A stretch of 58,082 nt of DNA from Candidatus Dojkabacteria bacterium (GTDB lineage Bacteria > Patescibacteriota > Dojkabacteria > SC72), in the NCBI GenBank assembly GCA_028694805.1, contig JAQVKD010000002.1:1-58082 (forward strand), written 5' to 3'. Below the pieces are notes generated by a model that was not told the DNA's origin, ran no database searches, and saw nothing but the letters and a program-made list of their open reading frames with translations. Below, piece by piece: positions 4,362 to 5,221 of this stretch. The translations under genes and the position numbers were made by a program. Numbering within the stretch: position 1 is the stretch's first letter; every line of letters starts with the position of its first letter.

Positions 4362-4385
4362 TTAGATAAAATAGCACAGGATGAA
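4362..4385 (+). repeat. Left arm of a 24-nt imperfect inverted repeat bracketing the foreign cassette
   Basis: TTAGATAAAATAGCACAGGATGAA. Its reverse complement matches 5198-5221 at 19 of 24 positions: the 13-nt core AGCACAGGATGAA is perfect, the adjacent T matches, and the outer TTAGA block matches. Confidence 0.7.
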
Positions 4386-4432
4386 TAAATGTTAGGTTAA
4401 AGTTTTCATTGATAACACTCTTTGATGTTTTA

Positions 4433-4486
4433 CCCCGCCAAATTAATTATTTTAAAAATATTTTTGAAGTAGTTAATTTGGTGGGG
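4433..4486 (+). other. Long hairpin in the 5' leader of the 4545 ORF
   Basis: CCCCGCCAAATTAA (4433-4446) pairs with TTAATTTGGTGGGG (4473-4486). This is 14 bp with one G-U, extendable by 3 bp, with a ~20-nt A/T loop. No U-tract follows directly. Confidence 0.55.
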
Positions 4487-4544
4487 TGTCATTCGACATT
4501 CTAAGAAAAATTTTTTAGTAAAGAACACTTAGGAGGTGTTTGCC

Positions 4545-5132
4545 ATGAAGATTAAAACTGGTTGGTTTGCTGTAATGATCGTTTCACTTGTTGTCCTCGC
4601 ACTTCTTCTGCTCTTGGTTCTTCCGAGGGCTTTCGATAAGCGATGGATAATTTGGGGAGAAGAGACTTCTTCTTCGGAAGTTTCAAATGATCCAGAGCCT
4701 TGGAATCCTTCGAGGAAAAACATTGCTGATCCGATCGTCGGACTGTTTCTGAATTATCCTGATATACAGTACACATATCTTCCACAACAGTGGGATATGG
4801 AATTTGGCTCGGTGTTTGCACTTGAGCTGACTGGACCAGGATTTGAAAGAATTAATGAAGAGCCATCTGATGCCGGGTTTATCGTACCCGATGGTTTCTA
4901 TGCCATTGTATATCTCGATGGACTCGGAGAAGAAAAAGGCTATGCAACATTCCCAGAAGGTTATATCGCAACCTTTGATAAAGGGAACCCAACGGAAATT
5001 TCGGGCTCAATTTTTCTTCCCCCAGGGACAATCATAAATGTCTCGTTTGCAGGAAATGATTCTTCAGGTATTTTGGTAATTTTGTCTCAGGACAAAACCC
5101 TCCTGCAGAATTATGTTAATTATTTTAAATAA
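4545..5132 (+). CDS. Hypothetical single-pass membrane protein encoded on a compositionally foreign segment
   Basis: AGGAGG (4531-4536) lies 8 nt upstream of ATG 4545; the ORF track starts at an upstream GTG at 4536. The protein is 195 aa. The N-terminal TM is WFAVMIVSLVVLALLLLLVL, followed by a probable extracytoplasmic domain. Hand-counted GC of lines 4561-4620 and 4621-4680 is 45-47%, against 25-30% in flanking lines. Codons such as CTC, CTG, CCG, TCG and GAC are rare elsewhere in the window. Confidence 0.7.
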   Translation: MKIKTGWFAVMIVSLVVLALLLLLVLPRAFDKRWIIWGEETSSSEVSNDPEPWNPSRKNIADPIVGLFLNYPDIQYTYLPQQWDMEFGSVFALELTGPGFERINEEPSDAGFIVPDGFYAIVYLDGLGEEKGYATFPEGYIATFDKGNPTEISGSIFLPPGTIINVSFAGNDSSGILVILSQDKTLLQNYVNYFK

Positions 5133-5164
5133 GTCAAACCCCCACCTGAAAAGAGACCTAGCAG

Positions 5165-5181
5165 ATTCCCATTTTGGGAAT
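5165..5181 (+). other. Short hairpin downstream of the 4545 ORF (not a canonical terminator)
   Basis: ATTCCCA-TTT-TGGGAAT forms a 7-bp stem with a 3-nt loop. It is followed by TACCTTACAAAAACG, so there is no U-tract. Confidence 0.5.
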
Positions 5182-5197
5182 TACCTTACAAAAACGT

Positions 5198-5221
5198 TTC
5201 ATCCTGTGCTAGAGTCTCTAA
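5198..5221 (+). repeat. Right arm of the 24-nt inverted repeat; overlaps stem III, the cleavage site and stem I of the hammerhead
   Basis: TTCATCCTGTGCTAGAGTCTCTAA is the imperfect reverse complement of 4362-4385. Confidence 0.7.

Follow-up and report, generated by a model that had tools for sequence, protein, structure and literature searches.

A conserved long-range helix and an adjoining hammerhead ribozyme predicted in the mRNA of a membrane-anchored protein from a family of Dojkabacteria

Introduction

Why should a bacterial gene lie between the two arms of a long-range inverted repeat, with one arm set directly beside a self-cleaving ribozyme? The locus that raises this question is found in a 58,082-nucleotide (nt) stretch of DNA from a Candidatus Dojkabacteria bacterium (assembly GCA_028694805.1, contig JAQVKD010000002.1, positions 1–58,082; hereafter "the window," meaning the whole stretch). 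There, an open reading frame (ORF) on the forward strand is preceded by a structured leader and followed by a predicted type III hammerhead ribozyme, and the repeat joins the 3′ end of the leader to the 3′ untranslated region (UTR). A first-pass annotation, made from the sequence letters, had offered two readings of the repeat. At the RNA level, pairing between leader and 3′ UTR would either compete with hammerhead stems III and I and so switch self-cleavage on and off, or join the ends of the RNA in a "panhandle"; at the DNA level, the arms could be the terminal inverted repeats of a small mobile cassette. Here we weigh these readings, and others that the locus invites, against related loci from the same bacterial family.

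Results

The inverted repeat is real and far from chance. Read letter by letter, positions 4372–4385 and 5198–5211 form a perfect complementary run of 14 base pairs (bp), which is the 13-nt core plus adjacent T that the first-pass annotation had described, and 4362–4385 matches the reverse complement of 5198–5221 at 20 of 24 positions; the annotated repeat thus stands at these coordinates and its count of 19 matches does not. The outer block, TTAGA (4362–4366) opposite TCTAA (5217–5221), is also complementary on direct reading, as had been claimed. A repeat search of the window drew the arms wider, at 4354–4385 and 5198–5229; these 32-nt arms are 78% complementary and separated by 812 nt. Each strand of the window holds one occurrence of the 14-mer, two in all, where 0.02 occurrences are expected, and none of 100 dinucleotide shuffles reached two. 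When the whole genome (897 kb in 77 contigs, 90% complete) was searched for further copies, as the annotation had suggested, the exact 13-mer turned up solely at these two arm sites. Copies with one mismatch lie on two other contigs (C42:3173–3185 and C62:4497–4509) and are probably chance; so, too, was the exact 14-mer set aside as chance where it occurred once each in two of 100 family genomes (G017 and G065), inside coding sequence.

Related loci were collected through the leader. Window DNA 4160–4400 matched 71 of the 100 family genomes at E ≤ 0.01, about 30 of them strongly, and many of these alignments end at query position 215–216 (window 4374–4375) because the arm carried by most of the family differs there from the arm shared by the window and G021, a genome of another genus in the family. 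The 29 best leader loci were oriented and 18 more regions were then fetched around weaker matches, which yielded 13 more complete units; second units were also present in loci L147 and L158. The final set comprises 40 units from 13 genera, all in the window's family. Outside this set stand five units with a left arm alone because the contig ends there (L143, L150, L153, L188 and the second unit of L158); L195, which at a contig start retains right arm and ribozyme alone; L191, whose fetched DNA gave a ribozyme and no arms; L162 (leader, with no clear arms); and L183 and L194 (arm motif not found by pattern). One unit, L146 (genome G102), was counted for its arms and not for its ORF, since a masked run of N in its insert makes its apparent short length unreal. 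Among 120 genomes from the order, 17 had the exact junction sequence, every one of them in the window's family; it was absent from the 20 genomes of four sister families, an exact pattern being a weak test. Scans for shorter words gave nothing of use: the two hits of a 20-mer scan of metagenome contigs (L016, L017) were chance matches in unrelated contexts, and the at least 118 matches of a 15-mer scan of viral contigs were noise.

In nearly every related locus with enough DNA, a right arm that is the reverse complement of the locus's own left arm lies 500–1200 nt downstream, and in related loci it is directly followed by GCTAGAGTC and the hammerhead core. We scored the core helix over 12 pairs, window 4372–4383 with 5200–5211, that is, over 480 cells in the 40 units. 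All 480 cells—many of them inherited among kin rather than independent—pair, 475 as Watson–Crick and 5 as G·U pairs, with no mismatch, even though the arms exist as nine haplotypes and compensatory double changes have occurred at 8 of the 12 positions. Specifically, C-G becomes U-A at 4375/5208 in 12 units, A-U becomes G-C at 4381/5202 in 4 units from three genera, U-A becomes C-G in 2 units and G-C in 1 unit at 4382/5201, and G-C becomes A-U at 4383/5200 in a single unit. Nearly all left arms of the family read AATAGC-GTGT-GATGAA, and those of the window and G021 read AATAGC-ACAG-GATGAA; their ACAG/CTGT variant, set against the GTGT/ACAC of the family, amounts to four compensated positions. 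The arm covariation among homologues that the first-pass annotation had named as a check on its RNA reading is therefore present.

Two controls, run on the first 25 units, support the pairing. Sliding the partner by 1–3 nt left 48–170 of 300 cells paired, compared with 300 of 300 unshifted, and when right arms were dealt at random among haplotypes (11 in this control, defined over 13 positions, k −3 to +9) the observed value was reached in none of 5000 permutations. Further, in all five cells that are not Watson–Crick a T in the left arm faces a G in the right arm, which gives U·G in RNA of the + strand and A·C on the other strand. As these wobbles pair only in the + strand transcript, they indicate an RNA helix and not a decaying DNA repeat. 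The two inner pairs are less general: 4384/5199 pairs in 26 of 36 tabulated units and 4385/5198 in 4 of the first 25, so that the 14 bp of the window lie at the long end. Judged by these substitution patterns, the repeat is a selected long-range RNA helix between 5′ and 3′ UTR, predicted to span 12 bp across the family (left strand 4372–4383) and 14 bp in the window genome, where 4384–4385 pair as well (left strand 4372..4385, right strand 5198..5211, both on the + strand). The panhandle of the first-pass annotation is borne out for this 12–14-bp core, which we call the clamp, and the arrangement of leader, clamp, gene and hammerhead is family-wide.

How, then, does the clamp stand to the ribozyme? 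Rfam's Hammerhead_3 model (RF00008) aligns to 5211–5266 on the + strand with 42.6 bits, the E value over the searched stretch being 1.3e-7, and it matches nowhere else in the genome. The core features of a type III hammerhead are all present, namely CUGAUGA (5238–5244), GAAA (5257–5260), U5217 paired with A5260, and C5218, with stem I at 5219–5224/5232–5237, stem II at 5245–5248/5253–5256 and stem III at 5213–5217/5260–5264. Stems I and II end in loops, stem III is open, and the predicted cleavage site falls between C5218 and U5219. Core and stems all lie within 5211–5266, so this is not a discontinuous (split) hammerhead. After the right arm, a canonical core (CUGANGAG ... CGAA[A/U]) follows in 33 of the 40 units; of the others, two depart from it in the first or second base, four lack a core and one is cut by a contig end. 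Among 22 units parsed, every cell of stems I (6 bp), II (4 bp) and III (5 bp) pairs, compensatory changes occur in each stem, and H17 is C throughout. Loops I and II are long and AU-rich in most hammerheads of the family.

The perfect core of the clamp ends at 5211, one nt before stem III, and overlaps none of the hammerhead stems (the linker measures 1–3 nt across the 22 parsed units). The right half of the outer block (5217..5221, + strand) does coincide with U16.1 (5217), C17 (5218) and the first stem I positions, 1.1–1.3 (from 5219), as the first-pass annotation had placed it and as the Rfam alignment agrees; its statement that the repeat overlaps the scissile site consequently holds for the outer block and not for the perfect core. 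The hammerhead adjoins the conserved helix without being overlapped by it, and the two are structurally compatible. By its sequence the ribozyme should cut after C5218, 7 nt past the helix.

If the outer block also paired, the RNA could act as a long-range switch: UUUAGA (4361–4366) would leave its local hairpin and pair with U16.1, C17 and stem I (5217–5222), the extended clamp would block self-cleavage, and a factor binding the leader would decide which pairing forms. Some comparative signal is consistent with this. TTTAGA and TCTAAG form five Watson–Crick pairs and one G·U in 17 of 33 units, and four plus two in 2 more; the leader's own partner UCUAAA resembles the cleavage-site UCUAAG; and in both units of genome G061 (L186 and L193) both pairings are kept through changes at three sites, the leader's 5′ strand, TTTAGA and position 1.3 of stem I, giving a compensated outer block of AATAGA with UCUAUG. 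On the contrary, the pairing is mismatched in its middle in 12 of the 33 units, mostly by an A facing the invariant C17, and outer-block partners from the same unit do no better than permuted ones (479 of 5000). The flank duplex of the window (20-nt flanks) reaches −6.7 kcal/mol (z −1.6), and in only 1 of 25 units does the corresponding duplex fall under 5% of shuffles.

TTTAGA also has a local partner. In the RNAalifold consensus of 29 leaders, it pairs with TCTAAA (4326–4331) at the base of the leader's 3′ hairpin, and where the G that would face C17 has become A, the compensating change is found in that strand of the leader and not at the ribozyme (columns 212/254: U-A 14, C-G 12, C·A 3). 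With a covarying local partner for TTTAGA, the outer TTAGA/TCTAA block is weakly supported, and its left half (4362..4366, + strand) is more likely paired locally. Folding, another check named in the first-pass annotation, came out in part for its pairing: the minimum-energy fold of 4205–5270 (1066 nt) contains the 14-bp helix, and in two-strand folds of the four correctly parsed units (the window, L139, L181 and L186, with L147 set aside) the optimum was in all four cases leader hairpin plus long-range helix plus active hammerhead, compared with which forced pairing of the outer block costs 4.2, 7.5, 7.8 and 8.5 kcal/mol, respectively. The competition with stems III and I that had been proposed thus does not extend to the conserved helix, which misses the hammerhead, and survives weakly for the outer block; we consider the switch unlikely and keep it as a minority rival because the three G061 segments have changed together. 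A separate pairing seen in the 1-kb minimum-energy fold, between leader UCUUUU (4217–4222) and ribozyme GAAAGA, was rejected, its variants being uncompensated by eye.

The units that have lost the ribozyme bear on what the clamp is for. In G021 the arms are identical to those of the window and 38 nt of the hammerhead, from stem I to stem III, are missing, with no ribozyme found there by Rfam; the losses in G021 and L154 are simple deletions. Four units without ribozyme (G021, L154, L180 and L189) retain the helix, and its role is therefore not solely to aid the ribozyme. Such retention would also be expected of an RNase III processing stem, in which a cut in the leader–3′ UTR duplex would separate leader and coding part and shorten the tail. 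A long-range duplex does bracket a functional RNA here, and the genome encodes RNase III (141 bits). Usual RNase III substrates measure about 20 bp, against which the conserved duplex of 12–14 bp is short, and its extension beyond the internal loop is poorly supported; we regard processing by RNase III as rather improbable.

The DNA-level reading, which takes the arms for the terminal inverted repeats of a mobile cassette or for sites at which a recombinase inverts or exchanges it, draws on the history of the segment between them. The inter-arm segment, including the inner 4 bp of the helix, is common to the window and G021, and G003, a congener of the window, has family-type arms and another ORF; the outer leader of the window is nonetheless closer to that of G003 (83%) than to that of G021 (74%). 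The segment between the invariant AGC and GCU has evidently been exchanged or inherited as a block, for which ordinary homologous recombination in the conserved flanks is explanation enough. The contigs of sequencing runs X1, X2, X4 and X7 were compared with the window. One X1 contig joins 4375 to 5208 (side 30, depth 5.1, intervening content unspecified), and at 80% likeness we read this joint as a co-occurring relative with another insert rather than an empty site. Across the four runs, all three joints were skips and none was strand-changing, a comparison of contigs in which rare forms could be missed. Contigs of X2 and X4, from other habitats, cover 4096–4375 and 5198/5208–5267/5319 with few differences, those of X4 continuing past 4375 with a family-type arm; no contig of either run spans 4376 to about 4800 or 5197, which is want of cover and not evidence.

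Most of the evidence runs against mobility. The repeat is single-copy in its genome and holds one syntenic locus between the same glycosyltransferase genes in 13 genera; no direct repeats lie beside the arms in the window, in agreement with the first-pass annotation, which had seen no target-site duplication; and no inverted or excised segment, empty site or dedicated recombinase was seen. The enclosed gene has the leader's orientation in all 40 units, which speaks against an invertible switch, and all five imperfect pairs are U·G in the transcript sense. Nor does composition mark a recent import. The ORF of the window has a G+C of 0.41–0.44 compared with about 0.30 in its flanks, and we considered this as a sign of import and rejected it, since the enclosed gene exceeds its flanks in 36 of 37 units (mean 0.43 vs. 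0.33) and the excess is thus a family trait. With single copy, fixed locus, uniform orientation and wobbles that pair in RNA only, the mobile cassette of the first-pass annotation is abandoned, and any DNA-element reading appears very improbable.

Upstream, the locus begins with a promoter-like site, TTGATA-17-TATAAT (4166..4194, + strand; 11 of 12 matches), whose extended −10 TATAGTATAAT is invariant in the relatives. This −10 element occurs once in the window and twice, about 91 nt apart, in 17 of 29 related loci; in many related loci the doubled copies precede the left arm by about 195 and 286 nt. From the promoter we place the start of a conserved structured 5′ leader of about 170 nt (4201..4371, + strand), with an invariant block CTGCTCTTT at 4213–4221, a hairpin GAGTTC/GAACTC (4291–4296/4303–4308) and a 3′ hairpin containing TTTAGA (4326–4366), all on the + strand. 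Among the 29 aligned leaders RNAalifold found 34 pairs, 13 of them with compensatory changes, and the blocks CTGCTCTTT and TATGAGTTC are invariant and single-stranded. No Rfam family matches the leader in the window or in the relatives' loci; we take it to be a candidate for a new structured RNA, one that most of the family's genomes possess. In the fold, leader 3′ hairpin, clamp and stem III are spaced by 5 and 1 nt. Downstream, an intrinsic-terminator-like hairpin with a T run (5374..5405, + strand) lies about 155 nt beyond the cleavage site, and in several relatives a terminator hairpin follows the ribozyme, by eye, within a few tens of nt. The hairpin of the window (5374–5398, + strand) falls within coding sequence, at the 3′ end of the convergent glycosyltransferase gene (5263–6087, − strand).

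Between the arms the window carries, in order, a sub-leader (4386..4544, + strand) homologous only to that of G021, a Shine–Dalgarno sequence AGGAGG (4531–4536, + strand) and the ORF (4545..5132, + strand), which encodes 195 amino acids (aa) with a hydrophobic N-terminal membrane anchor and belongs to no known family. The sub-leader contains a long hairpin (4432–4487; 32-nt arms, 88%) that is kept in G021 through G·U-compatible changes; its only Rfam matches are spurious ones to microRNA precursors. The remaining 3′ UTR inside the loop (5133..5197, + strand) has a C-rich run, CCCCCACC, after the stop codon. This run or one similar to it is found at 5139–5146 in the window, at about 669–676 in L007 and in several units of genus g18, in each case in the in-loop 3′ UTR, shortly past the stop codon or shortly ahead of the right arm.

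The enclosed genes are for the most part kin. Thirty of 34 enclosed ORFs form one single-linkage BLASTP cluster (E < 1e-5) with a common C-terminal part of about 100–120 aa, which rules out "unrelated cassettes" in the loop, and in 28 of the 34 the N-terminal segment is hydrophobic, in several cases together with a lipoprotein box. The ORFs of the window and G021 fall outside the main cluster and are accompanied by their own sub-leader and by the ACAG/CUGU helix variant; a profile built from 29 ORFs of the cluster, all but the 30-residue L147b, matched the window ORF with 10.9 bits, over the membrane anchor only. Pfam families were found neither for the window ORF nor for 10 relatives' ORFs searched, which gave weak matches only. 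The Atlas model of the window ORF has a pLDDT (predicted local distance difference test score) of 0.43 and a template-modelling score below 0.5 to cupin-like folds. Three relatives of the protein, 43–53% identical, occur in a large protein collection, a homologue was present in 1 of 60 related genomes (G021), and a search for loci related to the ORF returned one (L015) in genome contigs and none in metagenome contigs.

The G021 locus is split over two contig ends. Contig 1 bears the left glycosyltransferase and the promoter, a leader that shares 80% identity with that of the window and matches it perfectly over 35 nt, left arm included, and a paralogue of 173 aa; contig 2 bears a 202-aa homologue (42% identity), the right arm and the convergent glycosyltransferase. 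The two paralogues, L008:39–557 (−; 173 aa) and L007:60–665 (+; 202 aa), are 29 and 42% identical to the window ORF, respectively, and lie between one arm pair with the assembly break between them. Three genomes hold two units each, in tandem in L147 (G025) and L158 (G032) and on two contigs in G061 (L186 and L193). The second L147 unit consists of the last ~85 nt of a leader, left arm, short insert, right arm and ribozyme and has no promoter of its own; it encloses only a 17-aa ORF with a strong Shine–Dalgarno sequence. In L147 the ribozyme would separate two mRNAs.

In the window, the unit lies between two family-2 glycosyltransferase genes, the right one convergent. Two further neighbours, a 319-aa protein (2052–3011, −) and a 1181-aa multi-pass membrane protein (6077–9622, −), have no Pfam family, and several relatives likewise carry the 319-aa protein upstream of their unit. 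The window further contains two tRNA genes with long variable arms (23900–23983, − and 47758–47844, −; Rfam tRNA scores 49.8 and 56 bits).

Discussion

We suggest an architecture that we hold to be probable, if by no wide measure: in a ~1.0-kb mRNA a long-range helix closes a loop beside a hammerhead, and this clamp protects or defines the 3′ end of the message. Transcription from the promoter at 4166–4194 would read through to the terminator, and the helix would join the 3′ end of the structured leader to the 3′ UTR, looping out the sub-leader and the coding region of the membrane-anchored protein. The hammerhead, cutting after C5218, would remove the terminator hairpin together with a read-through tail antisense to the convergent gene, leaving a mature RNA of about 4201–5218 that would carry, next to the clamp, a 7-nt tail ending in a 2′,3′-cyclic phosphate. 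With the terminator hairpin gone, the clamp may shield or define the 3′ end; it may also keep the 12 nt ahead of the ribozyme from mispairing with the contents of the loop, so that ribozyme folding is insulated from the cargo. Definition and protection of the 3′ end and insulation of the ribozyme are the functions we infer for it.

Several points weigh against this architecture. The kinship of the units means that about eight independent compensatory events are counted, not 40, and one related locus (L162) has the leader and neither clear arms nor ribozyme. The hammerhead of the window scores below the Rfam gathering score of 48.5 bits; in the relatives Rfam detects it in 5 of 20 loci at E ≤ 0.001 and misses it in 15, and the five detected score 36–43.8 bits, all below the gathering score. 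Transcript ends, cleavage and pairing in vivo are predictions from sequence. While a relative's ORF is present in an RNA library (run X7), the contigs of that run cover only 4650–5022 of it and none of the ends. A local hairpin would insulate the ribozyme more simply than a long-range partner, and removal of the terminator hairpin could equally destabilise the mRNA.

Leader, clamp and hammerhead may even be one discontinuous RNA domain with the gene in its loop, in which the leader controls cleavage and 3′-end formation. The spacings of only 5 and 1 nt between leader 3′ hairpin, clamp and stem III suggest that the leader could be a sensor or a protein-binding platform. We think this speculative and doubtful; if true, nature would here have an allosteric ribozyme in split form, which would also serve an episymbiont as a plug-in scaffold for expressing a fast-evolving envelope protein.

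Known systems resemble parts of the favoured clamp-and-ribozyme architecture. Mammalian Clec2 3′ UTRs reportedly carry a discontinuous hammerhead, described by Martick et al. in 2008, with the ribozyme split by hundreds of nt; there, too, a hammerhead sits in an mRNA 3′ UTR and function depends on distant pairing, whereas the ribozyme of the window is contiguous and the distant pairing forms an additional helix, next to stem III, with the entire coding region inside it. The leader–trailer stems of rRNA are longer duplexes and RNase III substrates. They and bacterial 5′ UTR–3′ UTR pairings share with the clamp a long-range duplex flanking a functional RNA, but the duplex of the window is 12–14 bp and is coupled to a self-cleaving ribozyme. 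Insulators of the RiboJ type are engineered, stand at the 5′ end and use a local hairpin. In them, as may be the case here, a hammerhead-type ribozyme and an adjacent helix make expression independent of neighbouring sequence; the element of the window is natural, stands at the 3′ end and relies on a partner at a distance of about 800 nt. Viroid-like, retrozyme and Obelisk-type circular RNAs are similar in having a type III hammerhead in an RNA of about 1 kb, but the locus here is a chromosomal gene with its own promoter and usually a single ribozyme. Further, RtcB was found neither in the window's genome (90% complete) nor in 100 family genomes, which makes ligation into circles unlikely.

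In the passages of Perreault et al. (2011; PMC3088659) considered here, genomic hammerheads between genes are proposed to cut long transcripts into gene-length mRNAs, an idea that the tandem units L147 and L158 fit. Those same passages describe no long-range helix, conserved leader or bacteria of the candidate phyla radiation (CPR), and the ribozyme of the window is chromosomal and syntenic, not prophage-borne. In literature searches on hammerheads and ribozymes of Saccharibacteria and Patescibacteria we came upon no account of such an arrangement, the ribozyme papers for Saccharibacteria dealing with group II introns or unrelated subjects, and the family-wide mRNA architecture around the hammerhead is apparently undescribed.

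The role of genomic hammerheads in bacteria is largely unknown, and here one stands in a defined and conserved mRNA architecture, which gives a testable hypothesis for a ribozyme in mRNA 3′-end formation and stability. If the clamp insulates the ribozyme from its cargo, the arrangement would be a natural design for gene-expression cassettes. For the bacteria themselves, it marks a gene that is likely important for the cell surface of these ultrasmall episymbionts.

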